A DNA stretch of 64,000 nucleotides from Candidatus Doudnabacteria bacterium (GTDB lineage: Bacteria; Patescibacteriota; Doudnabacteria; UBA920), in contig CAWINB010000001.1 of assembly GCA_963837465.1 (NCBI GenBank), positions 11,915-75,914 of the forward strand. Reading direction: 5' to 3'. This document shows positions 1 to 22,069 of this stretch, piece by piece (positions within the stretch are counted from its first letter, which is position 1; each line of letters starts with the position of its first letter). Under the pieces are notes generated by a model that saw only the letters and a list, made by a program, of their open reading frames with translations, was not told the origin of the DNA and searched no databases. The position numbers and the translations under genes were made by a program.

Positions 1-1
1 G

Positions 2-292
2 TCCAACCGCGTGCGGACGCTTCTGGAGCACCACTTCGCCCTGGAGAAGGCGTTCCCGGTCAAGAAGCGGCGTGCCCAGGACATCGTCAAGGCGGTGGCC
101 AACCGCGCGGGGATCACCAAGGACGTGAGCCCGCACGTGCTTCGGCATACCTTCGCCACGACAGCCTTGCAGAAGGGCATCAGCCTGGCGACGGTCCAGA
201 AGATCCTGGGCCACGACCGGCTCCAGACGACGGCCATCTACCTCAATTTCACCGACACCCACATCCAGGAGGAGTTCGAGCGGAAGTGGTGA
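2..292 (+). CDS. Tyrosine site-specific recombinase, C-terminal part (5' end off-window). Possibly the TnpI-like resolvase of the transposon.
   Basis: Reading frame open from window start. Motifs HVLRHTFAT and GHDRLQTTAIYLNF (catalytic Tyr region). Confidence 0.7.
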   Translation, partial: SNRVRTLLEHHFALEKAFPVKKRRAQDIVKAVANRAGITKDVSPHVLRHTFATTALQKGISLATVQKILGHDRLQTTAIYLNFTDTHIQEEFERKW

Positions 293-382
293 GGACGAAC
301 CGGAGGAGCGGCCGTCCAGCAAACTCGATGGCCCCGGGTCTGTTATCCGCTCCGTTGCTACCGGAACCGCGAAGGAGCCCGG

Positions 383-3300
383 ATGCCCGTCGATTTTCTG
401 ACCGCGGAGCAGCAGAGGAAGTACGGCCGCTACGCCGGCGAACCCTCGCCCGCCCAACTCGGTCGCTACTTCCATCTCGACGACGCCGATCGCGCGGTGT
501 TGACGACGCGGCGTGGCGATCACAACCGGCTGGGCTTTGCCCTGCAACTGGGAACGGTCCGGTTCCTGGGGACGTTCCTCGACAATCCCACCGAGGTCCC
601 TGGCGCCGTCGTCGCCCATGTCGCCAGGCAGTTGGCGATCACCGACCTGACGTGCCTGAGACGCTACGGCGTCGGCGAGACCCACTGGGACCATGTCAAT
701 GAGATCAAGGCGGCCTATGGTTACCGAGATTTCTCCGACCAGCCCGGCCATTCCCGGCTGATCCGCTGGCTCTATGCCCGCGCCTGGGTCAGCGCCGAGC
801 GGCCCAGCCTGCTGTTCGACCTGGCGACGGCCTGGCTGGTCGAGCGCAAGGTCTTGCTGCCGGGCGTCACCGTCCTGGCACGCGAGGTCGCCCAGGCACG
901 TGATCGGGCGGCGGCCCGCCTCTGGCGTGTCCTCGCCAACGCCCCCAACGCCGGGCAGCGCGAACGGCTGGAGGCGTTGCTGGTCGTGCCCGAAGGTGCC
1001 CGCCAGAGCCATCTGGACCGGCTTCGCCGTGCGCCGACCCGGGTGAGCGGTCCGAGTCTGGTCGCCGCCCTGAGGCGGCTCGAAGAGATCCGCGCCCTGG
1101 GCGTCGCGGAACTCGACCTGTCGCGGGTACCCGCGGGTCGGCTCAAAGCCCTGGCCCGTCATGCCGCCACGTCCTGGGCGGCGGTGATCGCGCGGATGCC
1201 CTCGGACCGGCGGGTCGCCACCCTGCTGGCCTTTGCCCGGGCCTTCGAGGCGACGGCGTTGGACGACGCCTTGGACCTGCTGGACCTGATCATCACGGAT
1301 CTGCTGGCCCAGGCCAAGCTCGCCGGAGAAAAGGAACGACTTCGCACGCTCGGCGATCTGGATACGGCCGCTTTGCAACTCCGCGACGTCTGCACCGTCC
1401 TGCTCGACGAGGCTTGTAGCTCAGCCCGGGTGCGATCCTTGGCCTTCGCACGCGTCCCCAGGCCCCAACTCGCGGAGGCGGTGGCCCTGGTCGAGAGGCT
1501 GGCGCGGCCCCCGGAAGACGACTACCAGAGCGAACTGCTCGATCGTTACCGTCGCGTCCGCCGCTTTTGGCCCTACCTGCTCCGGACCGTCACGTTTCAG
1601 GGCACCCAAGCCGGCCGGCCGCTGACGCACGCGCTGAGCGTCCTGGCCGCTTGGGAGGACCAACGCGAGCCCGATCTCTCCCAAGCCCCCTTGGACGTGG
1701 TGTCGCGTGCCTGGCGGCGATTCGTGATCGGTCCGGACCGGACGATCGACCGCCGCGCCTACACCCTATGCGTGCTGCAGCGGCTCCAGGACGGCCTCCG
1801 CCGTCGCGACGTGTTCGTCGAACGTAGCGAACGCTGGGGCGACCCTCGGGCCAAGCTCTTGCAGGGGACGGAGTGGGAAGCGGCCCGGTCCCAGGTCTGT
1901 CTCAGTTTGGGTCGCCAGGCGACCGCCGCCGCCGAACTGGAATCACTCCGCCGCCAGCTCGACGACGCCTATCGACGGACCGCCGACAATCTCCCGGCCA
2001 ACGAGGCCGTCCGCATCGAGGTCGTCGCGGGGCGCGACTCGCTGACACTGACCCCGCTGGACAAACTGGACGAACCCGCCGGCCTGCGGACGCTCCGCCA
2101 GGCGGTGGCCGATTTGCTCCCACGCGTGGACCTGCCGGACGTCCTCCTGGAAATCCAGGCCAGGACCAACTTCGCCGAGGCGTTCACCCACGTCAGCGAG
2201 GCCGAGGCCCGCGTGACCGATCTGGCGGTCAGCGTTTGCGCGGTGCTGCTGGCCGAGGCCTGCAACATCGGGTTGGAGCCGCTGACCCGCCCCGAGGTCC
2301 CGGCCCTGACCCGCGGTCGACTCGCCTGGGTCCAGCAGAACTACATCCGGGCCGAGACCTTGATCCGCGCCAACGCCCTCCTGGTCGATGCCCAAACCAA
2401 AGATCCCGCTGGCGGGGGCCTGGGGCGGGGGAGAGGTCGCCTCGGCCGACGGCCTGCGTTTCGTGGTACCGGTCCGCACCGTCAACGCCGGGCCCAACAG
2501 CAAGTACTTCGGGGCCGGCCGAGGGATCACCTATTACAACTTCACCTCCGACCAGTTCACCGGGTTCCACGGCATCGTGATCCCCGGCACGCTCCGCGAC
2601 TCGCTGTTCATTCTGGAAGGCTTGTTGGAACAACAGACGAGCCTGCGTCCTCTGGAAATCATGAGCGATACGGCGGGGGCCAGCGACGTGGTCTTCGGCC
2701 TGTTCTGGCTTCTGGGCTACCAGTTCAGCCCCAGGCTGGCCGACGTCGGCGAGGCCCGGTTCTGGCGCATGGACCCCGCCGCCAACCACGGGGCGATGAA
2801 CGGTCTGGCGCGGCACCGAGTCAACACCGAGCTGATCGCCCGGAACTGGGACGACATGCTACGGGTGGCGGGGTCGTTGGCTCGGGGGACCATCAGCGCC
2901 TCGGAGTTGATCGGCTCGCTGCTGCGGAGCAGCCGTCCCTCGACCCTGACGCGGGCGATCGGCGAGTTGGGGCGGGTGGCCAAGACGCTCTACCTGCTGT
3001 CCTACCTCGACGACGAGACTTACCGCCGGCGCATCCTCACGCAGTTGAACCGCGGGGAGAGTCGCCACGGCGTGGCCCGGGCGATCTTCCACGGCCAGCG
3101 CGGCGAAGTCCGCCAACGCTATCGCGAGGGCCAGGAAGACCAACTCGGGGCGTTGGGACTGGTCGTCAACGTGGTGGTGCTCTGGAACACCCTGTACATG
3201 GACGCGGCGCTCGCCCATCTGCGCCGCCAGGACGTCGAGACGAAACCCGAGGATGTCGCCCGCCTCTCCCCCTTGGGGCACGAGAACATCAACTTCTTGG

Positions 3301-3404
3301 GAAGATACTCATTCGCGTTGTCGGAATCCGTCGCCCGCGGCGAGTTGCGACCGTTCCACAACCCGGAGGACGCAGGGAGCCAGGTCGGGCCGAACGCGGC
3401 TTAA
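383..3404 (+). CDS. tnpA: Tn3-family transposase TnpA, split by an apparent 1-bp frameshift near 2395-2405 (N-part 383..~2400, C-part in ORF 2388..3404).
   Basis: N-terminal ~670 aa reads as Tn3 TnpA. C-terminal 338 aa ([22 protein letters not shown] ... YYNFTSDQF ... DDE region) is in the +1 frame. Stop sits immediately before the terminal IR. Confidence 0.85.
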
Positions 3405-3439
3405 CCCGACTTTCTGTTCCGATGATTGTCGGACCCCCC
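3400..3439. repeat. Tn3-family terminal inverted repeat, 40 bp (inner end CTTAAC, outer end a C/G run).
   Basis: Read from the outer end it is GGGGGGTCCGACAATCATCGGAACAGAAAGTCGGGTTAAG, matching the GGGG...TAAG Tn3-family IR pattern. It overlaps the tnpA stop codon. Confidence 0.6.
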
Positions 3440-3540
3440 TGATGGGCCACGAGTCGCTGGAAACCACCCGCCGCTACATCCAGCCCGGCCACGACGACCT
3501 GGCCGCGGCCGTCGAGCGCATCGCCGGCGGGGAGGAGTGA
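3440..3540 (+). pseudogene. 3' remnant (~32 aa) of a second tyrosine recombinase gene, apparently interrupted by the transposon insertion.
   Basis: [33 protein letters not shown] directly abuts the IR. It contains the conserved H-x-x-R...Y C-terminal motif of tyrosine recombinases with no upstream part. Confidence 0.5.
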
Positions 3541-3964
3541 GCGGCGCACGGCGAAACCTTGCGCTAACGACACAACCTCACCTCTGCCGCCCAGGGCCAA
3601 GGGTAGCCAGCGAGGCGCGGAAGCAGCGAACTCGCGAAGAGTTTGTCCATCGCCCTGCGGCATCGCTGCGGCCCTCAACACCCAGGACCACAAGACCCGT
3701 CGCGATTGACCTTAGCTCGCCCGGTAATATTCGACTGGCTTGTGCTCGATACCGGCCCGCCCGCCGGCATCGGTTTCAACACCACCGACCCGACCGTCCC
3801 GGCGCCGATCGCCGCCACGAACCCGCCCCGACCGGCCGGATTCGGCCACCCGGCTCCCGATCGAAGGCCGACGAGCCCACGACGGGCCGGAAACGACCGT
3901 CTGAACCGTTCGGATGAGCTCGCAAGTCGCAAATCGCGCCGACCCGACCCGAAAATCCGGTCGG

Positions 3965-4035
3965 GGCGGTAACGCCTAAAAATGGAGCTTGACCCCATTC
4001 GTTACGCATACTAAAATGCGTAGATTACGCAAATT
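3965..4035. promoter_or_regulatory. AT-rich island with TTACGCA direct/inverted repeats (iteron/operator-like) upstream of the Rep-like gene.
   Basis: TTACGCA at 4002 and 4025, inverted TGCGTAG at 4017, related GTAACGCC at 3969. Low-GC patch inside ~70% GC DNA. Confidence 0.4.
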
Positions 4036-4375
4036 TCCGCAGCGGCGCGGTAGATTAAGACGGCAGAGTCCCGTCAGCAAGCTTAAAAACCCAGAAGTCC
4101 GGGCCGGGCGGATCGTCCCACGAACCCCTTGCATCTGAGCCACCATCACGAGACGATGGGAGGGCACAAACGGAAACGGCCAGGAGCCATCAACTCCCAG
4201 CCGCTCTTGACTCGGTTTCGACCTCATGGGGAGGCCGGCCGATCGCCGTGCGCCCTTAACAGCAGAAGGGACGCAATCGATGACCATCATACACCGCGGG
4301 CCGTCCCCGGGGAAGGGGACGGCCGTTGGGGTTTGCGCACTCAGGCCGGGACTCACCGGCCGGGGAGGTGCACCA

Positions 4376-5086
4376 TGAGTGCATCGGCCCTCTTCGCCAA
4401 GAACGGCGACTTCTACATCCCCGTCACCGTCCAGCTCGCACAGATCCCACGGGGCGACCGCACCGCTGCCTGGCTGGTCTACTCCGCACTGGTCGACAAC
4501 CTCCGGCCCGGACAGACCGTCCTCGGCGAGCGGTTCACCGACCGGGTCCTCCGCCAAAGCCCCTGGCTGCATGGGTACAGTTACCGGTTCGTCCAGAAGG
4601 GGCTCCACGTCCTCGAGCAGTGGGGGATCATCAAACGGGAACGCGGGCACGGCCGACGGATCATCACCTTCACCGGCCGCCTCAGGCCCTCGGGCAAGAC
4701 CGCCAGACCCGAGCCCAAATCCCCCGACAAGCCCAAGCCCAAGCCCAAGCCCGGACCCGCACCAGGACCGGACAGCACGCCCCTGACTCCCGAGCAGATC
4801 GCCGCCGCCGACAGGGCCCTCCAGCAGAAGTATGCCCAGGCCCAGGCCGAGGCTGACGACGACCCCGAGATCCAGGCCCAGGCCGACCAGTGGCGACAGC
4901 GCGGCGCCGAGCTCGCACGAAATGCGCAGCGAGAAGGCCAAAGCCAAGCAGGCCAAGCTCGAGGACCAGGCCCCCAAGAATCCAGAGGCCACCCGGGCCG
5001 AGGTCCAGGCACTCATCGCCGGACTGGCCGCCGCCATGAGGCCTCCCGAGGACCACGGCAAGCCACACGACCCCTCCGGACCCTGA
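4376..5086 (+). CDS. Putative winged-helix DNA-binding protein, possibly a plasmid replication initiator, with Pro/Lys-rich linker and acidic/Gln-rich C-terminus. Possible frameshift near 4920.
   Basis: N-terminal ~100 aa (AAWLVYSALVDNL...YRFVQKGLHVLEQWGIIKRER) looks like a wHTH. The C-terminal part continues in the ORF 4832..5086 frame (EKAKAKQAKLEDQ...). Confidence 0.4.
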
Positions 5087-5289
5087 CCCTCAGGACCAAC
5101 GGGCGATCACCCGAAACGCGACGGCCGCCCACCCCGTAGACGCTAACGCCGAGCCAGCCTGACCGACGTGCACCTATCCGCACGGTCGGTCTTGGTGCCG
5201 CACTCCACTCATGCACACCACCAAACCGCGGTCAACCCATCAACAAATCCATGTTCTTTTCTTTACGACCCATGCTATCGCACCGACGA

Positions 5290-5337
5290 ACGATTGCACC
5301 CACATCAGGGCGCAGGTGCAATCGCACCACGGTGCGG
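5290..5337. promoter_or_regulatory. Inverted repeats GATTGCACC/GGTGCAATC and CGCACC/GGTGCG in a lower-GC patch (candidate operator/origin element).
   Basis: 9-bp perfect IR separated by 15 bp, followed by a second short palindrome. Lies between the Rep-like gene and the par locus. Confidence 0.35.
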
Positions 5338-5879
5338 TTTTCTTAATGGAGTCTATAGCGCAAGACTAAAACCTCACGTCGGCTTGAGGCGGCCTATGGC
5401 CTGCCGACGTGGCGCAGGAGGGAGTCGCGCGAACACCTGGCGAGATGGCGGCAGCCCAGGAAACCCCCGGCCGTCGTGCATCCACGCAATCATGGAAACC
5501 ACTCCCCTGCCCTTCGCCGCCGGCCTGGTTTCCGACGGCCGCGCCCGGCGGCTCCCCAGCCCCGTCCTGGGCCGTGCGGGCGTCGGGCCGAGGGATCGGG
5601 CGGGCGGGCCGGCGGTCGCGGCAGAGACGGGCGGGGAGGGCCATTCCGGAGACGGGACGGCAACGCACCGGAGATCCCCCCTGCCCTGTCTCACCTCGGA
5701 TGGAGTAATGCCGAGTTTCTCGGACCCGGCCGGCCGACACCTCAAACTTACGACGTCATCGGCCAGGGCGTCCCAGGCATATCGACGGCAGCCCGGCCCA
5801 TCATACTCAGAACCCAGAGGACCACGGTTCCATAGACCCTCGGGCCTCAGAGCACATGGGCTCCTGATACCCTGGTTCT

Positions 5880-6600
5880 CGGGACATATCGGCTCAGAGT
5901 TCCTGGAGCCTGAAAGCCTATGAAGCCGCGGGACTTCAGGCTCGGAGGCCTCCCGGCCCGTGAGATTTCAGCCCCATGGGCACGCGAGTCCCCAGGCTCG
6001 TGAGCCCGCGATACCCTGGCCCTCGAGAACGATGGGCTCAGAATTCTTGGAGGCTGAAGGCTCATGAAACCGCGGGATTTCAGGATCGTAAGTCTTTGGG
6101 CCTGCGACCATTTCGGGACCACGGGCGTTCGGGTTCGTGGGATTTCAGGTCCATAGGCCCGCGGCACCGAAGGCTCCAGGGTGAACAATCCCGCGGGCTT
6201 GCGGACTTCTGGGCTCGCAGATCTCTAGGCTCGCGACCCTCTAGGCTCGCGACCTTCTGAGCCCATAGCGCTTCGGGCCTGGGGACCTCTGGGCCCGTGA
6301 GCTTCCGAGCCCATGGGGCTTCGGGCCTGGGAACTTCCACGCCCGCGAGCTTTCAGGACCGTAGACCTTCAGGACCGCAGCCTTCTGGACCCACGAGCTT
6401 CCGAGACCGCAGCGCTTCGAGCCCGAGGACTTCCAGGTCCGCGAGCTTTCAGGACCGTAGACTTTTAGGACCGCAGCCTTCTGGGCTCACGAGTTTCCGG
6501 GACCGCAGAGCTTCGGGTCTGGAGCCTTCCAGGCCCGCGAGCTTCCGGGCCCGCAGCGCTTCGAGCCTGAAACCCCGCGGGCTCCCGGTCCTTCGATGCG
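5880..6600. repeat. Degenerate tandem-repeat array upstream of parA (centromere/parS-like or iteron array).
   Basis: Repeated 12-20 nt submotifs (gagcttccgagc, cttcgggcctgg, ttcaggaccgtagac, ttctgggc). A ~96-bp higher-order unit repeats 2.3x from ~6340 to 6570. A ~140-bp unit occurs at 5891 and 6034. Confidence 0.75.
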
Positions 6601-6659
6601 GAAAGCCTCAAGGCTTGCGGGGTCATAGCCGATGAGGAGACACAGCAGGGAGGTAGGGC

Positions 6660-7478
6660 ATGCGTTCCATCGCGCTGGTGTCCGAAAAAGGCGGGTGCGG
6701 CAAGTCAACGACGGTCCTCAACACGGCGGCCTGCATGGCAGCCGGTGGGCTCCGGGTCCTCGTGGTGGACACGGACCCCCAGGCGAATTCCAGCTACGTC
6801 CTCCTCCGCGGGGAGAAGCCACGCCGGCCGGCGCTCCTGGAGGTTCTCGCGGCCGAGGCGGAGGCCCGGGAGGCCATCGTCCCATCCCCATCCTTCGCAG
6901 GCGTGGACCTCCTGCCGGCGGACCCGACGCTGGCGGACGCCACGGTCATGCTGGCGAACGAGGTGGGACGGGAACGACGCCTCCGCGTGGCGCTCGAGGA
7001 GATCGGGGACGACTACGACATCATCCTCGTGGACACGGCCCCCACGCGGTCGCTCATCACGACGAACGTTCTGAACTTCGCGGAGGAGATCCTGGTCCCG
7101 ATCGCTCCGGGACTCTTCGGCGTCCTCGGCCTCGGCCAGCTCCAGGCGGACGTCGCCCAGGTCCGGCGGTTCCTGGACAACAAGGCCCTCCGCATCGGCG
7201 GGATCCTGCTGACGATGGTGGAGAAGAACAACGTGGCCAAGGACCTCGAAGGGCAGCTCCGCCAGCTCTTCGGCGAGCTCGTCTTCCGGACCAAGATCCC
7301 GCGATCCATCAAGCTCGAAGAGGCGCACTTCCGCCACGAGTCCATTCTGGCCTACGCCCCCCGGAGCGTCGGGGCGGAGGCCTACAAGGCCCTCACGCAG
7401 GAGATCCTGGACCATGGCCGAGAAGAAAACCGGATTGACGGTACCCGCGGGAATCCTTCAACCCACCACGCCGCTTGA
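6660..7478 (+). CDS. parA: ParA/Soj-family partition ATPase.
   Basis: Deviant Walker A VSEKGGCGKST, ParA-like body, 272 aa. 4-nt overlap with the downstream RHH gene. Confidence 0.9.
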   Translation: MRSIALVSEKGGCGKSTTVLNTAACMAAGGLRVLVVDTDPQANSSYVLLRGEKPRRPALLEVLAAEAEAREAIVPSPSFAGVDLLPADPTLADATVMLANEVGRERRLRVALEEIGDDYDIILVDTAPTRSLITTNVLNFAEEILVPIAPGLFGVLGLGQLQADVAQVRRFLDNKALRIGGILLTMVEKNNVAKDLEGQLRQLFGELVFRTKIPRSIKLEEAHFRHESILAYAPRSVGAEAYKALTQEILDHGREENRIDGTRGNPSTHHAA

Positions 7479-7746
7479 AGACCCATCGGCCGAGGAAGGG
7501 CAGGGGGACGGCCCCGCCCGGGACGAGGGCCAGGAATCCCGAGCGGCCTCCAAGGCGGCCCGGAAAAATAAGGTCACGGACAAGGCCAGCTCCGGGAAGG
7601 TCGAAGGGCGGCGGCTCTACCTGTCGGAAGGCGTCCACTTCCGGCTCCGGCTTTATGCCTACCAGCGCGGTCAGAAACTCTCCGACGCGGCGGAGGAACT
7701 CCTCGACCGGTCCTTGCCGAAATGGGACGTCAGCCGGGTAGGGTAG
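7414..7746 (+). CDS. Ribbon-helix-helix (CopG/ParG-like) small DNA-binding protein, probable centromere-binding partner of ParA.
   Basis: Disordered acidic/basic N-terminus then an RHH-type C-terminal domain (GRRLYLSEGVHFRLRLYAYQRGQKLSDAAEELLDRSLP). Start overlaps parA 3' end. Confidence 0.65.
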   Translation: MAEKKTGLTVPAGILQPTTPLEDPSAEEGQGDGPARDEGQESRAASKAARKNKVTDKASSGKVEGRRLYLSEGVHFRLRLYAYQRGQKLSDAAEELLDRSLPKWDVSRVG

Positions 7747-7855
7747 GGCGGGGGGAGAACCCCCTCCTCAGAACCGGCATCACCCGGAGAGTCGGGCGAG
7801 GCCGGAACGCCGTAGGGCAGGGGAGGCTGCCAAGGACAACCCAGGAGGCCGCGTG

Positions 7856-8303
7856 ATGAGCAAGCGGGACGAATCGAGGAAAGCCTCTCGGGAGGTCGCT
7901 TTGGAGTCGATGGGATGTCCCCAGGCCGTCGTCAACGAGAAGGGCAAGGGCCGCAAGCTGACGCTGCCCGACAGCGTCTTCGACCGGCTGGTGCTCACGG
8001 CGATCCAGCGCGGGTACACCGCCTCGGCGATCGCCGCGGAGATCCTCGACCGGAACCTGCCAGGCTCCGAATCGCCAGCGATGAATAAGCCAGGGCCGAG
8101 AAAGCTTCAGCGCAGCCAGGCGCATCCGGGGCCGGACGATCTACCTGCCGGACGACCTGTTCGAGCGGATCCTGGTCCAGGCCCATCGCCGCGACCGGAC
8201 CATCAGCGAGTACATCGCCGGCATCCTCGAGCGCCAGGTCCCCGACCACCGGATCGCCCGCGCCGAGCCGGCCAGCGAGTCGACCGAGGCCGGGACGGCG
8301 TAG
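7856..8303 (+). CDS. Protein with two tandem RHH domains, paralogous to the ParG-like protein. Apparent 1-bp frameshift near 8135 (ccggggcc run).
   Basis: RHH1 = GRKLTLPDSVFDRLVLTAIQRGYTASAIAAEILDRNLP. RHH2 = GRTIYLPDDLFERILVQAHRRDRTISEYIAGILERQVP in the -1 frame. Both align to the ParG RHH. Confidence 0.5.
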
Positions 8304-8436
8304 GTCCTGTGGGGCAGGGGAGGGCCCTGATGGTCGAGAATGCGTGCTATTGGAGTTCATTTTTTTCGTTGCAGTTCCCCACAAGACGTGCAATAATCCC
8401 TCGGTAGTTCTTGTTATTCACCGAGGAATCATTGCA

Positions 8437-9045
8437 ATGGCCGAGCCGGCCACCAAGATGAAAGCGGCGTTGGAGCTGGTCCGCGAGCAAGGGATGCTCC
8501 GGCCCCGCGACCTGTCCCGGCGCGACATCCCGCCCGACTACCTGGACCGCCTCTACCGGCTCGGGCGGGTCAACCGCGTCGCGCGGGGCCTCTACGCCTG
8601 GCCGGATGCCGAGGTGGGCGAGCACCATAGCCTCGCCGAGGCCGCGCGCCTCGTCCCCGCGGGGGTTGTCTGCCTCCTGTCGGCGCTGCGGTTCCACCGG
8701 CTGACCACCCAGTCACCCCGCGAGGTGTGGCTCACCCTCCCGAGCAAGGCGTGGGCCCCGAAGCTCGAGTACCCGAGGCTCCGGATCATCCGGGCCGGCG
8801 GCCCGGCGCTGACGGCGATGGTCGAGGAACACCGGATCGAAGGGGTCCCCGTGCGGATCTACGCGCCGGCCAAGACGGTGGCCGATTGCTTCAAGCATCG
8901 CAGCAAGGTCGGGCTGGACGTGGCCCTCGAAGCCCTCCGCGACGCCTTCCGGGGACGGAAGGCGACGATGGACGAGCTGTGGGCCGCGGCCCGCGTCTGC
9001 CGGATGGAGAACGTGATGCGGCCCTACCTGGAGTCCCTGGTATGA
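8437..9045 (+). CDS. abiEi: AbiEi-family antitoxin / transcriptional regulator (type IV TA system).
   Basis: LLSALRFHRLTTQSP...RIYAPAKTVADCFKHRSKVGLDVALEAL pattern typical of AbiEi. ATGA overlap with the downstream nucleotidyltransferase gene. Confidence 0.8.
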   Translation: MAEPATKMKAALELVREQGMLRPRDLSRRDIPPDYLDRLYRLGRVNRVARGLYAWPDAEVGEHHSLAEAARLVPAGVVCLLSALRFHRLTTQSPREVWLTLPSKAWAPKLEYPRLRIIRAGGPALTAMVEEHRIEGVPVRIYAPAKTVADCFKHRSKVGLDVALEALRDAFRGRKATMDELWAAARVCRMENVMRPYLESLV

Positions 9046-9963
9046 CGCGGGGGAATCCGAAGGACATGGCGGCCTCGGTGCGACAGCGGCTGCTCAACCT
9101 CAGCCGCCAATCGGGGGAGGACTTCCAGCGGCTGCTGACCCGGTATGGGATGGAGCGGTTCCTCGACCGGCTGTCCCGCTCGGAGCACGCCCCGCGGTTC
9201 GTGCTCAAAGGGGCCCTGCTGTTCGCGCTCTGGACGGGCGAGCTCCTCCGGCCGACGCGGGACCTCGATCTGCTGGGATTCGGCGACAGCAGCGCCGAGG
9301 GCATCGCCGAGGTCTTCCGATCGCTCTGCGCCTGGAAGTGGCGGACGACGGGCTGGTGTTCTCCGCCGAGACGGTGTCCGTCGAGCCGATCCGCGAGGAT
9401 CAGGAATACGGCGGCCAGCGGGTGAAATTCGAGGCGCGCTCGGGCAAGCCCGGATCGACCTCCAGGTCGACATCGGCTTCGGGGACGCGATCACGCCGGG
9501 GGCGGAGTCCGTCGCATACCCGACGCTGCTGGGCATGGAACCGCCGCGGCTCCGCGCCTACCCGCGCGAGACGGTGGTGGCGGAGAAGCTCGAGGCGCTG
9601 GTGAAGTTGGGGATGGCCAACAGCCGGATGAAGGACTTCTTCGACCTGGCCGTCCTGGGCCGGTCGTTCGCGTTCCAGGGCCCGGTCCTACGGGATGCGA
9701 TCGTCGCGACGTTCCGGCGCCGGGGGACGGCGGTCCCGACGGAGCTGCCGATCGCCCTGGGCGATGCCTTCGCCAAGGATGGGGCGAAGCTGGTGCAATG
9801 GAAGGCGTTCGTGAGCCGCAATGGCCTGGAGGGGAGGGCAGGGGATCTGGGGCAGGTGGTTGGCGAACTGGTCGGGTTCCTCGGCCCGCCGCTGATCGCG
9901 GCAGCGAAGGGAGAGGGGTTCGAGTGGCGGTGGGAACCGGCCGGTCCGTGGCAGCGGGCATGA
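9042..9963 (+). pseudogene. abiEii: AbiEii/AbiGii-family nucleotidyltransferase toxin (DUF1814), split across three frames by two 1-bp indels (~9335 and ~9445).
   Basis: GMERFLDRLSRSEHAPRFVLKGALLFALWTGELLRPTRDLDLLGF... continues as LEVADDGLVFSAETVSVEPIRE... and then ARIDLQVDIGFGDAITPG...MKDFFDL in shifted frames. Confidence 0.8.
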
Positions 9964-10019
9964 ACGGTCCACAAGCACCCGGATAGTGAAGGCATCGCAT
10001 CCCCGCCGGCCCGGTTGGG

Positions 10020-10095
10020 ACATCGCGGCCCGTCCGTCAGCCGGGCAGGGGAACCCGTCCGGCCCGGGCTCGCTTCGTCACCCGGATCCGGGCCG
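10020..10095. repeat. ~75-bp direct repeat, copy 1 (module boundary; possible promoter/regulatory element).
   Basis: atcgcggcccgtccgtcagccgggcagggg...gtccggcccgggctcgcttcgtcacccggatccgggccgggccgcc recurs at 11297-11375. Confidence 0.6.
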
Positions 10096-10311
10096 GGCCG
10101 CCGCGGACGGAGCGGTCGCGGCCCCGGGCGATGTCGCCCCGCTCGTCCAGCGGGATGTTCCGTCGAGGCCCTTGAGATCAGGGGGATTTCCCGGGGAAAC
10201 ACCCAACGCGGGCCGTCCGGTGGGAGACGGTCTTGCGGGCCACGGCCGGATCGAACAGGATGGCTGTCAGGGCAGAAACCGCGGCCCCATTCCGGAGACG
10301 GAGCAAACCCC

Positions 10312-10965
10312 ATGTCCACGGCCACAACGACTCGACCGACAGTCTCATCCCCGCCCCCTGGACGCCGCCACTCCACCGGATCACCGTCGACGAGTACGAG
10401 CGGATCATCGAGGCGGGTGCGCTGGAAGATCCCGGCCGGGTCGAACTCATCGACGGCTAGATGGTGGACAAGATGGGGAAGAACGCGGAGCATCGCTACA
10501 CCACCAAGAAGATCCTCAAGGCGCTGGACGGCCGACTGCCGCCGGATGGACGTCGCGAAGGAGGAGCCGGTGCGGATCCCCGCCTATGACGAGCCGGAGC
10601 CGGACGTCGCGATCATCCGGGGCACCGACGCCGATTACGAACATCGGATCCCCACGGCCGCCGACGTGGCGCTGCTGGTCGAGGTCTCCGACTCGACGCT
10701 GGTCCAGGACCGCGGCAAGAGGCTCTCGGCCTATGCAAGGGGCAGGATCCCCGTCTACTGGATCGTCAACCTGGTCAACCGCCAGGTCGAGGTGTACTCC
10801 CGGCCGGGGAAGAGCGGTTACCGGTCTCACAAGATCTTCGCATCCGGCGAGCAAGTCCCGGTCACGATCGGCGGCCAGCAGCTCCGCCCGATCGCCGTCG
10901 ATAACCTGCTCCCCCGCCGCAAAGCCACCGAGGGCAAGGGCCGGCCCAAGGGTAACGGGGCATGA
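10312..10965 (+). pseudogene. Uma2-family (DUF820, PD-(D/E)XK-like) putative endonuclease, copy 1. Frameshift ~10340, in-frame TAG at 10458, net -2 deletion ~10535.
   Basis: MSTATTTRPTVS / LIPAPWTPPLHRITVDEYERIIEAGALEDPGRVELIDG*MVDKM... / EEPVRIPAYDEPEPDVAIIRG...VYWIVNLVNRQVEVYSRPG, pieced from three frames. Paralogous to copy 2. Confidence 0.75.
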
Positions 10966-10968
10966 CCG

Positions 10969-11392
10969 ATGCCCAAGCCCATCCCCAAGCCACCGCGTGC
11001 CGAGGAGGTCCTGGCGGCGGTCGCGGCCCGGTACCCGGCCGGCGCGACGGTCACGCGGTCGGATGATCGCCGAGGTCGGCGGCGTCAACCTGGCGACGGC
11101 GGGTCAGATCCGCCAGTGGGTACGGCGCATGGGCGATGGCCGTTCGCCGACGGCAAGGGGGAGCCCGACCCCGTCAGGTCCGGCCCATCGGCCCGTCGCT
11201 GACCGGGACGGATTGGTCATAGATCGCCGATCAACCGAGCGGTGCGTCCACTCGTCAGATGGGTCCAGTCGGGAGAGCTCCGGCGGCTCGGCGACGATCG
11301 CGGCCCGCCCGTCGGCCGGGCAGGGGGGCCGCCCGGCCGGGCCGGGCTCGCTTCGTCACCCGGATCCGGGCCGGGCCGCCGGAAGATGTTGA
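10969..11392 (+). CDS. Small conserved hypothetical protein, copy 1 (MPKPIPKPPRAEEVLAAVAARYPAGATVT...). Frameshifted after ~30 aa and longer C-terminal tail than copy 2.
   Basis: First 29 aa identical to the 61-aa ORF at 12124. MIAEVGGVNLATAGQIRQW continues in another frame. Confidence 0.4.
11297..11375. repeat. ~75-bp direct repeat, copy 2.
   Basis: Near-identical to 10020-10095 with a few indels. Confidence 0.6.
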
Positions 11393-11497
11393 CGTCCCCG
11401 GCCGGCCTGTGAGTCAATGGATGTATCGGCGAGTCATGCTGATCCGCGGACCATCACCGCCACGCAAGGAAGATGACACTCGGTCGGAGTGAATCCC

Positions 11498-12107
11498 ATG
11501 TCCACCCTCGCGTCGATGCCGACTCAACCGGCGGGCCCGATTCGGATCCCCTGGCCGCTCTACCGCATGACGCCTGGAGCAATACGAGTCGCTGATCGCC
11601 TCCGGCTTCTTCGCCAAGCAGGACGACGTCCACCTCATCAACGGATACGTGGTGAACCGAATGGCCGAATCGCCCTTGCACGGCGCCGTCTGCGAAGCGA
11701 TCCGCATGGCCATCGGGGCGATCCTGCTGGCCGGCTGGCATACCCGCAGCGAGAAGGGGCTGAGGATCCCCTCGCAGATCAGCATCCCGCGCCCGACCTC
11801 GCCGTCGTGCGCGGCGACTGCGCGGGATTACTTGACCCGGTACCCCGACGCGGCCGATGCCGCCCTGGTCGTCGAGGTGTCCGTCTCGAGCCTGGACGAA
11901 GACCGGGCGATGGCCGACATCTACGCGGCCGGCGGCATCCCGGTCTACTGGATCGTCAACGTGGACGACGGCCAGGTCGAGGTCTACTCCGACCCGGGTC
12001 CATCCGGCTACCAGTCGCACGAGGTCCTCGCGCCCGGCCATGTGCTGCCGGTCGTGATCGACGGCGTCGAGATCGGCGAGATCCCGGTGGCCGACATCCT
12101 GCCCTGA
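11498..12107 (+). pseudogene. Uma2-family putative endonuclease, copy 2. Frameshift ~11575 and two compensating indels ~11790-11835.
   Basis: MSTLASMPTQPAGPIRIPWPLYRMTP / EQYESLIASGFFAKQDDVHLINGYVVNRM... / ...PDAADAALVVEVSVSSLDEDRAMADIYAAGGIPVYWIVNVDDGQVEVYSDPG. Confidence 0.75.
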
Positions 12108-12123
12108 CGGGAGTTGACCGCCC

Positions 12124-12309
12124 ATGCCCAAGCCGATCCCCAAGCCACCGCGGGCCGAGGAGGTCCTGGCGGCGGTCGCGGCCCGGTACCCGGCCGGCGC
12201 GACGGTCACGCTGCCGATGATCGCCGAGGTCGGCGGCGTCAACCTGGCGACGGCGGGTCAGATCCGCCAGTGGGCGAGGGCGTGCAATTCATACCGTTCC
12301 GAGAAGTGA
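12124..12309 (+). CDS. Small conserved hypothetical protein, copy 2 (61 aa, intact).
   Basis: MPKPIPKPPRAEEVLAAVAARYPAGATVTLPMIAEVGGVNLATAGQIRQWARACNSYRSEK. Follows Uma2 copy 2 exactly as copy 1 follows Uma2 copy 1. Confidence 0.5.
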   Translation: MPKPIPKPPRAEEVLAAVAARYPAGATVTLPMIAEVGGVNLATAGQIRQWARACNSYRSEK

Positions 12310-12315
12310 CCCCAA

Positions 12316-13130
12316 CTAGAAATCACCATAAGTCTTCACGCGGCGGGTCAGGTCGGAGATCGCCTCTCTGTGGCTCATGTGTTCCTCTCGCCTGAGCATG
12401 TCGTAGACGACGACGAATCGTCTGATCAAACGCTTTTCGAAGCCTTTACGGCTGGTGGATCTCATGGTCTGAACCAGACCCTCGAGGATGTCTGTTGGCT
12501 TCGTTCCCTCCCGGTATAATTCCTGACTGGCGCTACGGCAGTTGATCCAGACGTCGAACACGTCTGCCTCGAAATAGCTCGTCGCCTCGACGAGAAGCAG
12601 TTCAAACTCCCGGCCGGGCGGCATTGTTGCAGCCATGTCCTCATAGAATTCGCGCATCGACTTTTGGGCCTTAGCGAGCGGTTCATAGTCTTTGGAGTCC
12701 TGTTCTTGCAGGGCGTTTCTCTCCCTGGCGCACCCATGAGAAACTTGGCCGCGTAATCAGGCATCTCGGGATGACGACGCTTCGGATCATAACCCCGAGA
12801 AAAACCAGCGAACCACAAACAGAGAGAAACAAAGCCGATCACCCCGGCCGAAATCCCACCCACCAAGACGAGGGTCTTCAGTCTTGAACTTGAAGCCTGT
12901 GCGTTCTTCGGCCTCCACGGTTCGGACTCAGGGCTACCCCTTTCCTCGTCGGTCGCAGGCCGTGTCAGTGCCGGGGGAATCGGCGGCGGAGAGTCACCTG
13001 ACTTCAATGTCAACGGGAACGGGACCACGACTCCCCATCCGCACGACGGACATTTCGACCGCCGGCCAGCGTATTCATCCTTCACGCTCAGATTCTTGCC
13101 GCACGATCCACACGAGAAGCTAATCGCCAT
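12316..13130 (-). CDS. Zinc-ribbon / Pro-rich linker / single-TM protein with C-terminal soluble domain. Apparent frameshift near 12735-12750.
   Basis: N-term MAISFSCGSCGKNLSVKDEYAGRRSKCPSCG (CxxC...CxxC). TM LVLVGGISAGVIGFVSLCLWFAGF. C-terminal domain continues in the ORF 12316..12657 frame. Lies in the ~50-55% GC island. Confidence 0.45.
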
Positions 13131-13757
13131 CGATCGGCCTCCACCTAACGGCCAACACGAACGGCCACGCTTGGATCATGATATCGTGCATTATGTAGTA
13201 TTCAAGACAATCGAGCCTCCTCAGACCCCGCCGGCCAGGCAGGGGCGCCCTTCGGTCGGGGCGTTGGGCAGACCGCTCACCTACTTGCGGTCTGGGCTTC
13301 CGGTCTCGGATCATCCTCGATAATTCACCGGGGACCCAGACGACGCCCTGGTCGAGCCAGGGGCAAAGCGGATTAGTGCACCAAGCTCGTACGCACCGAG
13401 CTCCCCGCCGGGATCAGTTAGGTCGCGCCGCTCCCAAACAATTCTGTAAGCAACCGGTGAGGTACGACAACGGGGACAGATCACGTCGGCCATCGAGTTA
13501 GGCTCCCAGCAGGCCGGGATGCACTCCATTGGCATCTCCGTGCCCACTTCACAGCCTAATGCCCCAGACCTCCTTGGCTGAAACGGCGGGCCATCTGGTG
13601 ACCAGATTCCCTAACGTTAAGCGACTCTCGGATGAAGTGATGGCAGACGATCCGCTCGCGGGAAAACCCACGCTCAGTCTATAATCCGCTTGACTGCCTT
13701 TTACTTCATGACGTAGGTCTCGCTGTAAGGTGTGAGTGCCCAATAAGTTCCGAATTG

Positions 13758-14063
13758 CTACAGAGTATCACCTCGAAGGGATTCCTCAATCTTGGCCTTC
13801 AGCTCATCGGGGCCATTCACGTGCATCTTGAGGTCCTTCAGATCGCTTCCGCTAAAACTCAAAGTAACTTTTGACAGGTTCTCGTGGCCGATCGCATCTG
13901 CGACTCGCTGGCGTGCGATTTCCTCCATCTTGCTCCCGATGGAATCCCGGTTCTCTCGGAGGTATTCGTCGAGCATATCTTCGCCGTCGAATTCGAAGGA
14001 CATGATGGCTTCCACCTTCCAAATCGCTGGGCTCGGGTACTCCGCAGCAAACGGCCGAAACAC
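13758..14063 (-). CDS. Hypothetical small acidic protein.
   Basis: ORF with balanced composition in the lower-GC island. Likely starts at internal Met (MSFEFDGEDMLDEY...). Confidence 0.35.
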   Translation of the reverse strand: MFRPFAAEYPSPAIWKVEAIMSFEFDGEDMLDEYLRENRDSIGSKMEEIARQRVADAIGHENLSKVTLSFSGSDLKDLKMHVNGPDELKAKIEESLRGDTL

Positions 14064-14339
14064 ACCAAGTTCGCCGTGTGATTGGGTAGATTATCTAAAC
14101 TAAAGTATACGCCATTTCGCCGTCGATCGCAACGTCGCTTGCCGTCGCGGCTCTTGGCCTTCACGTAGCAAATGGACAAAAAACAACGCTAAGGCCGGTC
14201 TTTCCCGAAACTCAGTGGCTCAAGCAGGCCTGGGGACGTTGATTCTGTGACGGGTAACGGAACGGCTTTGAGGGGCCTTTTCAGCGGGATTTCGGCTACC
14301 CTAGGGGAGAGTGCCGAAATTGCTCCATTTCGGGATTGA

Positions 14340-15257
14340 GTGAGTCGAAGACCGGAATCGACATGGATGCTCACGCGATGGCTGGTGTTCCATGTCGCGA
14401 GCGGCCAATCGTTCTTCACAGGCGCCGCCTGCCTGATTGTTGCGGTGTGTCTGACAGCCTTGAAAAAGCAGCGTCACATACGCATAGCTCGGAACGCTCT
14501 CGTCTGTCTCGGAGGCATATTCGTCTCCGTGTCCGCGACACCGTTGTCGCCTTGGTTCTATCTCCTCCTGCTCATCGCGTCACTGCTCTGGTTGGTGGGC
14601 GAAGCGTTTGGTGGGCGGGTCTCCGGCCCGACTCGTCCTCGGGTTGCGGGTCGCTGTCGCCATCGTGTGGGTAGCGGCGGTGCTCGTCGAATTGCCCTAC
14701 CACCTCTCGCCGAGGGTTCCTCAACTCGGCCATCCGATTCTCGGAATCATCGGCGATTCGGTAACGGCCGGGATGGGTGAGCAGAAGGCCGTTACCTGGC
14801 CCCGAATCTTCGCGGACCGCTACGGCGTCGTGGTCCACGACCATTCTCTGGCGGGGGCCAATGTCGCTTCCGCGTTGCGACAAGCGGCCTCTGTTTCCTC
14901 GGACGAGCGGCTCGTTTTGCTGGAGATCGGTGGGAATGACATCCTGGGGGAGACCACCCCCGCAGGGTTTGAGGCGGGGCTCGCGGGTTGCTCTCGGCGG
15001 TCTGCCGACCCGGCCGAGTTGTTGTCATGCTTGAGTTGCCGTTGCCGCCCACGTACAACGCTTACGGCCGCATTCAGCGTCGCCTGGCTCGGCAATACAA
15101 GACCCTCTTGGTTCCCAAGCGAGTTCTGCTCGGTGTCCTCCAACAGCAGGGCTCGACCCTCGACACGATTCATCTCACCCAAGAGGGTCACCAAGGCATG
15201 GCCGACGCCGTTTGGAATGTCGTGCGGGCTGCGTACGAAGACGAGAGGCGGCCTTAG
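14340..15257 (+). CDS. Membrane-anchored SGNH/GDSL-family hydrolase. At least two 1-bp frameshifts (~14615 and ~14995).
   Basis: Three predicted TM segments, then GIIGDSVTAGMG (block I), LLEIGGNDILG (block III), and C-terminal ...LDTIHLTQEGHQGMADAVW (block V) in successive frames. Confidence 0.65.
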
Positions 15258-15353
15258 CGTTGTTTTCTGTCCGTTTGCTACTGGAAGGCCCTCTTGAAGT
15301 TCCTCGGACCCCGCCGGCCCGTCCGTGGCCCGGCCCCCCGCCCACCCCCGGAG

Positions 15354-16187
15354 TGCCGGCATCGTGCCGGCCCGGGCGGTCGGGCCGTCGTGGCCCGCCC
15401 GCTGCTCGCGCCCGCCGGCCTGGTCCCGCTCGAGGCGCCCGCCCGCCGGCCGGGCCGGTCGGAGGGCCGGCATCCTGCCGGCCACCCGCGACGGCGACCG
15501 CGACCGCCGCGGCCGACGGCGACGCCGAGCTGGTCCGCCTGGACTGGACAGCCCGCCCGCCGGTGACCGCCCGGGCCGGCCCGGGCCACCATCGCCGGCG
15601 ACGGTGACGGCGACGTCGGCCGCGGTGACGCGCACGCTGACGACGCCCAGGCCGTTGACCAGCTCGGCGACGATCGCCGCGGCGATGGGGATCCTCGCCT
15701 GGCTTCCAGAGCCGCCGGCTACGCTCAAGCGGAGACTGACGCGTCAATCAGAGAAGGGAGGGCGTGCCGCCGGCAAAGACACGCTGACGCGGGCGGACGT
15801 TTCCCAGGCGGTAGCTCGCCAGGCTTCAGGGGAATCGGAGCCCTGTTGCTTCGTAAACGACCAGCCGTCAGCCGCTCCCGACACATGCCGTGCCAGGCGG
15901 CTCACTGCGTTCGGCCCTACGGGCTACCCGCCTGTCACGGCAATATGCAGGGTCCGCGGTTCACGGGCACGGCCGTCCTGGCTGGGTTCGGCGGGCATCC
16001 TGCCCCCGGGCTTCGGCCAACACCCCCCAAGAATACCGGGGGGGGTTTTGGCCTCCGCCGAACAAAAGGTGGTCGCTTCGCTCCGCGCTATCAGTTGGGG
16101 GTAAGGAGGAGGAGAGGAGGGGGGTCTCCCCCCGCGGCCGGCATCCTGTCCGGCCCGCCCCAAGGCCACGGCGGGCATCGTGCCCGC
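15354..16187. repeat. GC-rich noncoding block with five copies of a 17-bp palindrome GCCGGCATC(S)TGCCGGC / GCGGGCATC(S)TGCCCGC.
   Basis: Copies at 15354-15370, 15466-15482, 15992-16008 (imperfect), 16135-16152 (1-nt insertion), 16171-16187. The two variants keep dyad symmetry through compensating changes. Confidence 0.6.
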
Positions 16188-16503
16188 CGCTGCCGCTGTC
16201 GCGGTGCATCGCCCGCCCGCCGCTCGCCGGCCCGCTCGTTGGCGGGCGTCCGCCCCCCGGCCACATCGCCTCATCATTCGTTTATTAGTTCACTCTTGCA
16301 CGTATGTTTCCGGAAACGACACTAGTCGATTTTCCCGGGGAAAACCGCGATTTTCCCGGATTTTGGCTTATGACAGCCATAGTGTATTTTGGTACAATGG
16401 CGGTCCCGGGCCGGCATCGGGCCGGCCCGGGAAAGCAATGGCCCCGCGAGTGCTAGTAACACCCGCGGGGCCGAGTCCGCAAGCTTATTGGAGCTCGCGA
16501 ACC

Positions 16504-17150
16504 ATGGCCACTGTAGCAGCTCCGCCGCGCCCCGTCGGCGCGGCCCCGCCCCCCGTCCGTCACGGCATCTGCCGGCTCACCCTCCGGATCGGAGGCACCG
16601 AGTACCGCCTCCGGCCCATGCCCGCCCCAGCCCGGCTTCCGCGCCGTCTGGGTGCTCAGGAAACTCGATCCGCACGGCCCGGTCGTGCACTACTCCGTCG
16701 CCCAGCCCAAGGGCGAGCCCGCCGGTTGCACCTGCCCGGATCACGAACAGCGTGGTCCATATGCAAGCACATCATGGCGCTTGCGGCGCTGGGCCTCATC
16801 GCCCCGCCGAAGGCCGCCCGGCCGGCCAAGGCCCGCACCCGGCAGCTCCACGCCAAGAATGCCCGCCAGGCCATCGCCGAGGCCAAGGCCCTGCCGGTCG
16901 AGGCCCGCCGCCACCTGGCGGAGATCGCCCCGCGCCCAGGCCTGCCCGGAGGGCTGGCAGTCCCGGCGGCGCCGCACCCGTCCTTCGCCACCGGCTTCCG
17001 CCAGGCCGTTGCCGCCCACGTCGCCCGCATCCGGCCGCGGCGGCCTATGAGCCATCTGCGATGGCTGCGGCGCGGAATTCGACCCAGATCTCCGGCGATC
17101 CCGAATTTCTGCGAAGCATGCTTGCGCGAAGGAGGTGCGCATGAACAACA
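16504..17150 (+). CDS. SWIM-type zinc-finger protein (hypothetical). Reading frame broken at ~16625 and ~16760; 3' end uncertain.
   Basis: GEPAGCTCPDHEQRGP + ICKHIMALAALGLI gives the C-x-C-x(n)-C-x-H SWIM signature when two frames are joined. Confidence 0.35.
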
Positions 17151-17476
17151 CCGAACTTCTCACTTACGTCCAGGCCGAGATCCGGCGCTGGGGGCGCTGC
17201 GGCGGCCCATGCCGCGTTCGTCGCCGATCAGCTCGATCGCATCGCGCAGCTCATCGTCGTTCACCGGCGCGAGACAGCCCGAGCAATTCGACGCGGATCG
17301 CGTGCAACGAGGAAGGCGTCAAGGAGGAAGCACTTCGAGCCGCGGCTACCGAGGGTCGGGAATCCGCACCTCCTGTCCATCTGAGCGGCCGTGCACCAAT
17401 TAGCCCGCCCCCCGCCCCACGGCCCGCCCCGCCCGTCCCGGGCGGGTCGGGCCTGCTCCCATCAGGAGATCACACC

Positions 17477-21368: not shown

Positions 21369-21377
21369 ATATTATTT

Positions 21378-21936: not shown

Positions 21937-21983
21937 ATCACGAGTGCTTATTCGTACGAATAAGCACTGTAGCTTTAACAATC

Positions 21984-22005
21984 GGCAAACAGCCGATTTT
22001 TTGTT
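21984..22005 (+). terminator. Rho-independent terminator.
   Basis: atcggcaaacagccgat hairpin + T run, same motif as at 19928. Confidence 0.5.
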
Positions 22006-22069
22006 ATAATTGGGGAAGGTAATTAATCTTTTTATTATGTATAAAACAAAAGCGCGTAAGGATTGCGAT

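Follow-up and report, generated by a model that had tools for sequence, protein, structure and literature searches.

Introduction

In type Ib partition systems the centromere is an array of 7-9-bp subsites upstream of parA that is cooperatively coated by dimers of a flexible-tailed ribbon-helix-helix (RHH) protein, as described for parH of TP228 (PMC3130281) and for pCXC100 (PMC3074162). The parH site covers ~100 bp with 12 boxes and is accompanied by the 8-box operator O_F (PMC3130281), and the pCXC100 site measures 81 bp (PMC3074162). Here we describe a locus at positions 5808-7746 of a 64,000-nucleotide stretch of DNA (contig CAWINB010000001.1, positions 11,915 to 75,914; hereafter the window). 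Judged from its sequence, this locus is quite likely a type-Ib-like partition locus of an Isosphaeraceae-type planctomycete plasmid, with a long repeat array as its centromere and operator. Only positions 1-18588 of the window belong to the element under study, and this segment has a close sibling in the European Nucleotide Archive, the metagenome contig ERZ25039522 contig_7010 (54,855 bp; loci L003 and L004; hereafter the sibling contig).

The locus is like ParF-ParG-parH of TP228, delta-omega of pSM19035 and ParA-ParB of pCXC100 in that it combines a small ParA that has no helix-turn-helix (HTH) at its N-terminus, a small tailed RHH protein (its fold here predicted) encoded directly downstream of parA, and short subsites repeated without interruption right upstream of parA. 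It differs from the established type Ib systems mainly in scale, the array running over ~800 bp with ~100 half-sites compared with 9-20 subsites over ~80-160 bp. Its 16-bp units, unlike theirs, each combine two unlike 8-bp half-units and keep strict register, and the array is GC-rich whereas the comparators have AT-rich spacers. The ParA, a Soj-like protein of 272 aa (compare 1WCV), is set apart from the type Ib comparators, and the RHH protein, which we call RHH1, has no detectable sequence relation to ParG, omega or pCXC100 ParB and carries a motif of its own, PAGILQPTTP. To our knowledge, arrays of this type are several times longer than any RHH-type centromere. The locus is a new, unannotated member of the ParA plus RHH partition class, notable for its very long phase-locked array and for a pattern that it brings to light across the family in planctomycete plasmids.

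A survey of the planctomycete plasmidome describes several features that are common to this element, namely an RPA gene with nearby iterons, ParA, a tyrosine recombinase, toxin-antitoxin modules and an Isosphaeraceae host (bioRxiv 10.1101/2024.01.22.576637). The survey passages drawn on here report ParA in 19 planctomycete plasmids and ParB, an HTH protein, in 12, and these passages describe no RHH partner or centromere array (bioRxiv 10.1101/2024.01.22.576637).

A predicted partition locus with an 800-bp array

The locus consists of the following features:

5808-6111, plus strand: left sub-array, 19 units of 16 bp, mostly 8-bp half-units of the type GCYCnnGA, with a 144-bp higher-order repeat (family D2)
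6113-6608, plus strand: right sub-array, proposed centromere/operator, 31 units of 16 bp in perfect register, consensus YCRGGMCCGYRRNCYT
6660-7478, plus strand: parA, 272 aa, a small Soj-like Walker ATPase (Pfam AAA_31, 2.7e-39; CbiA; MipZ)
7414-7746, plus strand: RHH1, proposed centromere-binding protein, 110 aa, overlapping the 3' end of parA by 65 nt

The array is non-coding and ends 50 bp before the start codon of parA. The original prediction had recognised it as a degenerate tandem array at 5880-6600 with several nested periodicities; the array is real, its extent has to be corrected to 5808-6610, and it is built of ~50 units of 16 bp, each composed of two 8-bp half-units. Tandem Repeats Finder returned periods of 16, 32, 48 and 96. 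Base-identity autocorrelation over 5808-6610 reached 0.48-0.55 at lags of 16, 32, 48, 96 and 144, compared with 0.27 in dinucleotide shuffles (z = 13-17), and 0.36-0.38 at lags of 8 and 24 (z ~6), with peaks at each multiple of 16 up to 160. Likewise, 16 divides the lengths of all higher-order repeats (48, 96 and 144 bp). In the right sub-array, which has the 48/96-bp higher-order repeats, half-units of the types GGMCCGYR and RnCYTYCR alternate, and when the sequence was stacked in rows of 16 all 31 consecutive units aligned without a single indel. The left sub-array is shifted by one base relative to the right one and is richer in the first, GGMCCGYR-type half-unit. A protein-coding reading of the array was rejected, as stops occur in all six frames and the period is 16 bp. 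Gene calling on the sibling contig also placed a 223-aa gene at 5250-5920, which seems to be spurious: Pfam lists no family for the product, and in a related contig (P0005) the equivalent gap was left without any gene call.

Repeats of this kind might also be non-functional satellite DNA, or an artefact of repeats collapsed or expanded during assembly. The degeneracy of the array and its 48/96/144-bp higher-order duplications are typical of unequal crossing-over, and the assembly of the window does contain indel errors and a chimeric junction. However, the alignment bins 6000-7000, with about three quarters of the array in them, show no difference between the window and the sibling contig, arrays of matching period and position occur in three finished plasmids and several metagenome contigs, and a register kept over 31 units implies selection on phase. 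We regard a satellite or artefact as extremely unlikely and take the array to be a genuine part of the predicted partition locus.

The product of parA matches the ParA assignment made for it originally. It has the deviant Walker A motif SEKGGCGKST (KGGCGKST being residues 10-17) and no N-terminal HTH; its match to the NCBIfam family ParA_partition was below the cutoff. The closest solved structure was Soj of T. thermophilus (1WCV, E 3.7e-40, aligned over residues 2-255). A Shine-Dalgarno sequence, GGGAGG, is present at 6648-6653.

RHH1 lies directly 3' of parA in the same operon. Its conserved parts are the N-terminal PAGILQPTTP, a basic patch, and a C-terminal GR(R/K)LYL(S/P)E...F(R)L...LD(K/R)xLP. 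In the AlphaFold2 (AF2) model residues 1-64 are disordered and residues 65-71 extended, and two helices (72-85 and 89-100) are predicted with a pLDDT (predicted local distance difference test) of 84-92, a topology that fits an RHH domain behind a flexible tail. The best Foldseek matches were RHH domains (MatP, CopG, FitA, Arc and AmrZ), with E > 1, a lack of significance that is due to the small size of the domain (~35 residues). The RHH1 family comprises 85 homologous clusters, none of them annotated or assigned a Pfam domain; a profile built from 41 homologues found no PDB sequence below E 0.6, and scans of viral contigs found no family members.

Conservation in planctomycete plasmids

DNA and protein matches place the element among plasmids of the Isosphaeraceae (Planctomycetota), and a search for related ParA-RHH systems with similar repeats found them in finished Isosphaeraceae plasmids and in metagenome contigs. 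Three finished circular plasmids, pOJF2_2 (Aquisphaera giovannonii) together with pEP7_04 and pEP7_03 (both Isosphaeraceae EP7), each have ParA and an RHH1 homologue at position 1, and a 430-600-bp non-coding array of 8/16-bp periodicity at the end of the record, that is, just upstream of parA. ParA of the window is 71% identical to that of pOJF2_2, 64% to that of pEP7_04 and 67% to that of contig L020. The order ParA, then RHH, was found in pOJF2_2, pEP7_04, pEP7_03, L019, L020 and the contigs of P0005 and P0030, and an RHH1-type gene followed ParA in every locus examined. Across the finished plasmids and those metagenome contigs that have no winged-helix gene (see below), arrays upstream of ParA-RHH pairs span ~300-800 bp.

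A position weight matrix was derived from the window units alone. Its sole clusters in pOJF2_2 and pEP7_04 were within the last 500-640 bp, and it also clustered upstream of parA in L020. Plasmids with closely related RHH1 proteins therefore have the repeat motif in common, and array, parA and RHH gene are conserved as a tripartite unit. Sister systems that differ at the presumed DNA-reading positions of the beta-strand (L022, pEP7_03, L011) have arrays of the same period and another motif:

RHH1 family: beta-strand residues R/K-Y-S/P, array motif YCRGGMCCGYRRNCYT
L022 system: beta-strand residues T-Y-P, array motif TCCCGATnGCCAGCCn
pEP7_03 system: beta-strand residues K-H-P, an array motif of its own

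This co-occurrence of array and ParA-RHH pair, together with the pattern of motifs and residues, is what would be expected if the array were the cognate centromere/operator of the RHH protein. The type Ib precedent, in which arrays of short subsites are bound by tailed RHH dimers, also counts in favour of a centromere.

Several observations weigh against this interpretation. A promoter scan of the region recognised no promoter for parA. Neither Pfam nor NCBIfam gave a significant match of RHH1 to ParG, omega or any RHH family, and the Foldseek values were as given above; Pfam RHH_5 was matched only by a paralogue, RHH3, at E 3e-4 and below the cutoff. RHH1 had been described as ParG-like, a term that holds by analogy for its role and predicted fold and does not extend to membership of the ParG family. 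The left and right sub-arrays differ, which leaves room for two binding proteins, and several single-base indels in the window relative to the sibling contig make fine details uncertain. In L019, ParA-RHH1 begins only 90 bp after an RPA gene, and within 10 kb an array is lacking; parA is thus commonly, not obligatorily, preceded by one.

Some of the related loci have features of their own. The two EP7 plasmids come from one strain, and in each the ParA-RHH pair has its own long array (pEP7_03, CP151670.1 40257-40860 and 1-1090; pEP7_04, CP151671.1). The RHH protein of pEP7_03 is 37% identical to RHH1 of the window, and its array has a strict 8-bp period and a motif unlike that of pEP7_04; the two look like a natural compatibility pair. 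At L011 2212-2975, in a metagenome-assembled genome of Planctomycetaceae (CAWDND010000038.1), a ParA gene (51% identity) and an RHH1-like gene are preceded by 180 bp of extremely AT-rich DNA with an array of 8-bp units on either side, the two facing opposite ways (TRTCRCGG and CRCGAYRC). L020, a Logan contig of 14.6 kb (ERR1598041), carries ParA-RHH1, a ~300-bp array and a gene for an SU10-type major capsid protein, and may be a planctomycete phage-plasmid.

The winged-helix gene and plasmid replication

Upstream of the array lies a gene that had originally been read as Rep-like and preceded by iteron-like repeats. It is surrounded by the following features:

3989-4017, plus strand: promoter TTGACC-17-TAAAAT, the only sigma-70-like site within 3500-8500
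4003-4022, plus strand: predicted palindromic operator TACGCAT-N6-ATGCGTA, embedded in the promoter
4025-4031, plus strand: third half-site, TTACGCA, located by motif search
4032-4374, plus strand: conserved leader of ~340 nt, with a hairpin GGCCAGGAG-N7-CTCCCAGCC at 4178-4202
4375-5086, plus strand: orphan winged-helix gene, frameshifted by one additional C (4930) when compared with the intact sibling gene (P0001, 236 aa)
5270-5415, no strand assigned: conserved non-coding block downstream of the gene, with ATCGCACC-like boxes at 22-bp spacing and an AT-rich patch

The short TTACGCA repeats need a correction. They occur only as two direct copies (4002 and 4025) and one inverted copy (4016-4022), 350 nt upstream of the ATG and within the promoter, and from this placement they look like a promoter-embedded operator, not iterons. 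The layout of promoter and inverted repeat is kept upstream of the homologues in L006 and L010. An alignment of the window with these two loci showed conserved blocks in the leader and a conserved stem with a variable loop; Rfam found no family above the gathering score within 3500-8500.

The winged-helix fold itself was borne out. In the AF2 model of P0001 a winged helix at residues ~15-105 (pLDDT 80-93) is followed by a Pro/Lys linker and a helical C-terminal region. Foldseek returned generic matches only (ArsR/SrnR, TubR, BlaI, AspA and the N-terminal domain of pSK41 RepA), all with E > 0.01. The protein and a profile of its homologues matched no Pfam, NCBIfam or PDB sequence, and tblastn gave no match among 72,556 plasmids. 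An exhaustive HMMER search of 1.84 billion representatives yielded a family of 97 clusters; among 68 members, the only Pfam matches were weak ones to generic HTH families (GntR, Crp, HTH_36), and viral-contig scans gave none.

Within the downstream block, 5320-5349 can form a terminator-like hairpin and has a T-run (plus strand), and a long GC hairpin at 5375-5415 has a T-run after it on the minus strand. It is conserved in L008 and L010, with terminator-like sites on both strands, and the long hairpin still pairs through 4 double changes among only three sequences. As an origin of replication the block was rejected, since two convergent terminators explain it equally well and no DnaA boxes were found in the high-GC segment. 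Homologues in L006, L008 and L010, whose proteins are 43-53% identical, are likewise accompanied by promoter/operator, leader and downstream block. L010 has the cassette alone, without ParA or array, and on the P0005 contig (JGI), the single further locus where winged-helix gene and ParA come together, a winged-helix gene (43% identity), a 900-bp gap, ParA and RHH are ordered as in the window. Arranged in this way, the winged-helix gene forms a cassette by itself, self-contained and distinct from the par genes, with a promoter/operator, a long leader and terminator-like hairpins of its own.

We considered whether the winged-helix protein is the novel initiator of a second replicon, with its iterons and oriV either in the 16-bp array or in the 22-bp-spaced ATCGCACC boxes and AT patch at 5270-5375. 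As in iteron replicons (Rep and 17-23-bp iterons), direct repeats stand beside a gene for a winged-helix DNA-binding protein, here in a plasmid backbone next to par. The recurrence of the whole cassette, also without ParA, is as a self-sufficient module would behave, the fold has a weak likeness to the N-terminal domain of pSK41/pTZ2162 RepA (4pql, 4pt7), and pOJF2_2 lacks an RPA gene, so that other initiators must exist in such plasmids. However, the protein belongs to no known initiator family, and no winged-helix homologue was found in the array-bearing plasmids pOJF2_2, pEP7_04 and pEP7_03. The 16-bp array goes with ParA-RHH1, being present where the winged-helix gene is lacking and missing in L010 where that gene stands alone. 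Its 50 contiguous units that co-vary with ParA-RHH are unlike the 5.8 iterons of 23 bp found on the sibling contig, and there is no set of a few co-inherited 17-23-bp iterons beside the gene with an AT-rich region or DnaA boxes; the boxes at 5275-5330 are the remaining iteron candidate.

An initiator of a canonical kind is also at hand. On the sibling contig, which is 97% identical over the shared 15 kb, an RPA/PF10134 initiator gene is preceded by 5.8 copies of the 23-bp iteron TTTCCTCCCTGGAAGGTCGTGAG (L004 2392-4106; record ~20297-22011). This module lies ~13 kb downstream, ~1.7 kb past the end of the window's plasmid segment. RPA with iterons also occurs in pEP7_04 and in L019, where 3.7 copies of a 22-bp iteron, CCGTGGTTTGAGGGGTAAATCG, at 2571-2650 precede the RPA gene. 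RPA with iterons is reported to be the usual initiator of planctomycete plasmids (bioRxiv 10.1101/2024.01.22.576637). The initiator of this plasmid is most likely the RPA-family gene with 23-bp iterons just beyond the high-GC segment of the window. With that module on the sibling contig, and no Rep homology of its own, the winged-helix protein is therefore read as accessory, and a second replicon is unlikely. Of the partition/replication module that had been proposed, comparative evidence for ParA, RHH and array supports the partition part, and the replication part is not supported.

KfrA of IncP plasmids has an N-terminal DNA-binding domain, a long helical tail and its own promoter with a palindromic operator, and is encoded beside the partition region. 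The winged-helix protein is like KfrA in architecture only; it has no match to Pfam KfrA_N and its helical tail is much shorter. It is most likely an autoregulated accessory DNA-binding protein of KfrA-like architecture and not the plasmid initiator.

The same protein might be the second half of a two-protein centromere, binding the left sub-array (5808-6111) while RHH1 binds the right one, in the manner of AspA-ParB-ParA of pNOB8 or of TubR. The sub-arrays do differ in their units and are offset by one base, the fold matches include the centromere binders TubR and AspA, and the order of the genes recurs on the P0005 contig. Yet the half-site TACGCA of the putative operator was not found in the array, related plasmids have arrays with similarly mixed half-units and no winged-helix gene, and the cassette occurs without ParA in L010. 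Such a division of labour is very improbable, and we prefer a single-protein centromere coated by RHH1.

RHH paralogues downstream of the locus

Two further RHH domains are encoded 3' of RHH1. Their paralogy with RHH1 was confirmed, the three domains being 41-51% identical (tblastn E 1e-5 to 9e-7). The features of this region are:

7747-7826, plus strand: remnant of the 3' end of an RHH3-type gene, translating as ...SEPASPGESGEAGTP and a stop codon, then GGGCAGGGGAGG
7856-8088, plus strand: RHH2, 77 aa in the sibling contig (P0093), with a Shine-Dalgarno sequence AGGAGG at 7844-7849
8089-8303, plus strand: RHH3, a 5'-truncated remnant without a start codon

It had been suggested that a single protein carries both additional domains. 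This did not hold, as RHH3 is in the +1 frame relative to RHH2 in the window; the sibling contig has it in frame, behind the TAA of RHH2. In the window one C is missing at ~8062, and the conserved C-terminal end of RHH2, ...RNLPRLRIASDE and stop, is thereby lost; more than 15 homologues end LPRLRIA(S/A)D(E/D), as does RHH2 of the sibling contig. Full-length relatives of RHH2 (97-114 aa) begin MPAALIRPT and are encoded directly behind ParA (L023), and the N-terminus of RHH2 in the window is unrelated to theirs. Full-length relatives of RHH3 (100-130 aa) have the N-terminus MAERRSGAGPRLSGVLERSTP (...LSGVLERSTP) and lie behind a ParA with its own 16-bp array (L022); compared with these, RHH3 is short of ~55 N-terminal codons. 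A profile search placed RHH2 and RHH3 in one large unannotated family of 317 clusters, whose full-length members have N-terminal motifs akin to that of RHH1 and lie behind a ParA that has its own array in L023 as well as in L022.

An extra RHH protein had also been proposed as a regulator of the adjacent AbiE pair. In two other loci the RHH2-RHH3 pair is found without AbiE beside it, after a ParA-ParB(HTH) operon in L021 and after ParA-RHH2 in L023, and this role is not supported. The AbiE pair itself is present, an AbiEi antitoxin followed by an AbiEii nucleotidyltransferase, as in type IV toxin-antitoxin/abortive infection systems:

8437-9045, plus strand: AbiEi (Pfam AbiEi_4, 6e-6)
9042-9963, plus strand: AbiEii (Pfam AbiEii, 5.7e-25), frameshifted in the window, intact with 307 aa in the sibling contig

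Two RHH3-type 3' ends (7747-7826 and 8296-8323), reading ...EAGTP and ...EAGTA before their stop codons, enclose the RHH2-RHH3 cassette. Each is followed by GGGCAGGGGAGG, a 12-mer whose second copy, after RHH3, is exact (8312-8323). These duplicated ends with their 12-mers point to a footprint of recombination, or swapping, of centromere-binding-protein genes between par loci. RHH2 and RHH3 are paralogues, truncated or without the tail, of proteins that bind the centromeres in sister par systems, and would have been left from or recruited after par-locus recombination. They may be debris, local regulators or agents of partition incompatibility.

Assembly and flanking genes

The GC content is 66-70% in the first 18.6 kb of the window and ~45% in the rest. 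The junction (18588-18600) is abrupt: at 18588/18590 the high-GC stretch breaks off, and a lepA gene without its 5' part starts without transition. The sibling contig matches window positions 1-15092 at 97% identity, its homology extends to 18588, and beyond the counterpart of that position it goes on with high-GC DNA. The window must therefore be chimeric or concatenated from contigs, with the junction at 18588.

Compared with the sibling contig, the window has single-base indels that disrupt the Tn3 transposase, winged-helix, RHH2 and AbiEii genes. As the sibling versions of these genes are intact and agree with more distant homologues, reading frames of the window need caution. The sibling contig is frameshifted too, its own RPA gene being split by two frameshifts in that assembly. 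Divergence between the two is ~0.3% in 4000-9500 and 5-10% around 10015-12310, so that the partition/AbiE backbone is far better kept between the assemblies than the flanks.

In the right flank, 10015-12310 holds two genes for Uma2-family endonucleases in a locally duplicated, highly divergent stretch. The left flank has a tyrosine recombinase (11-292) and a Tn3-family transposase within 383-3540 (frameshifted in the window; 1006 aa in the sibling contig). At ~3400-3438, 3' of the transposase gene, there is what by eye looks like a Tn3-type terminal inverted repeat. A further open reading frame directly past it has as its last 32 codons (3443-3540, MGHESLETTRRYIQ...) a stretch that resembles the C-terminus of a second tyrosine recombinase.

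Discussion

How the locus may work can be outlined from type Ib systems. We infer that RHH1 binds DNA, stimulates the ATPase and regulates its own operon. Dimers of RHH1 would bind cooperatively to the ~100 consecutive 8-bp half-sites (50 x 16 bp) upstream of parA, and the resulting assembly would both form a very large partition complex and repress the par operon. The flexible N-terminal tail of RHH1, with its K/R-rich start and PAGILQPTTP, would contact the Soj-like ParA and stimulate its ATPase on the nucleoid, which in turn would move plasmid copies apart.

A more speculative and rather improbable idea is that the RHH2-RHH3 cassette is a weapon, its tail-less products coating the arrays of rival plasmids without activating ParA and thereby destabilising them. 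The cassette recurs behind unrelated par operons (L021, L023 and this locus), and the full-length relatives of its DNA-binding-only products have an N-terminal motif that would contact ParA. No cognate array for RHH3 was found in the plasmid segment of the window, which is consistent with a target in trans. If true, RHH2-RHH3 would be a case of protein-mediated partition incompatibility that serves plasmid-plasmid competition.

The locus and its relatives offer a candidate partner and centromere for those planctomycete plasmids in which only ParA has been recognised. The candidate parts are the unannotated RHH family with its 85 clusters, the ~300 clusters of the sister families, and the arrays of 300-800 bp with their 8/16-bp period. 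Little is known of planctomycete plasmids and few genetic tools exist for the phylum; the par parts together with the RPA-iteron module could serve in stable shuttle vectors. The diverged versions that coexist in one host, on pEP7_03 and pEP7_04, provide a natural case in which co-evolution of the RHH beta-strand with the repeat motif may keep plasmids compatible.

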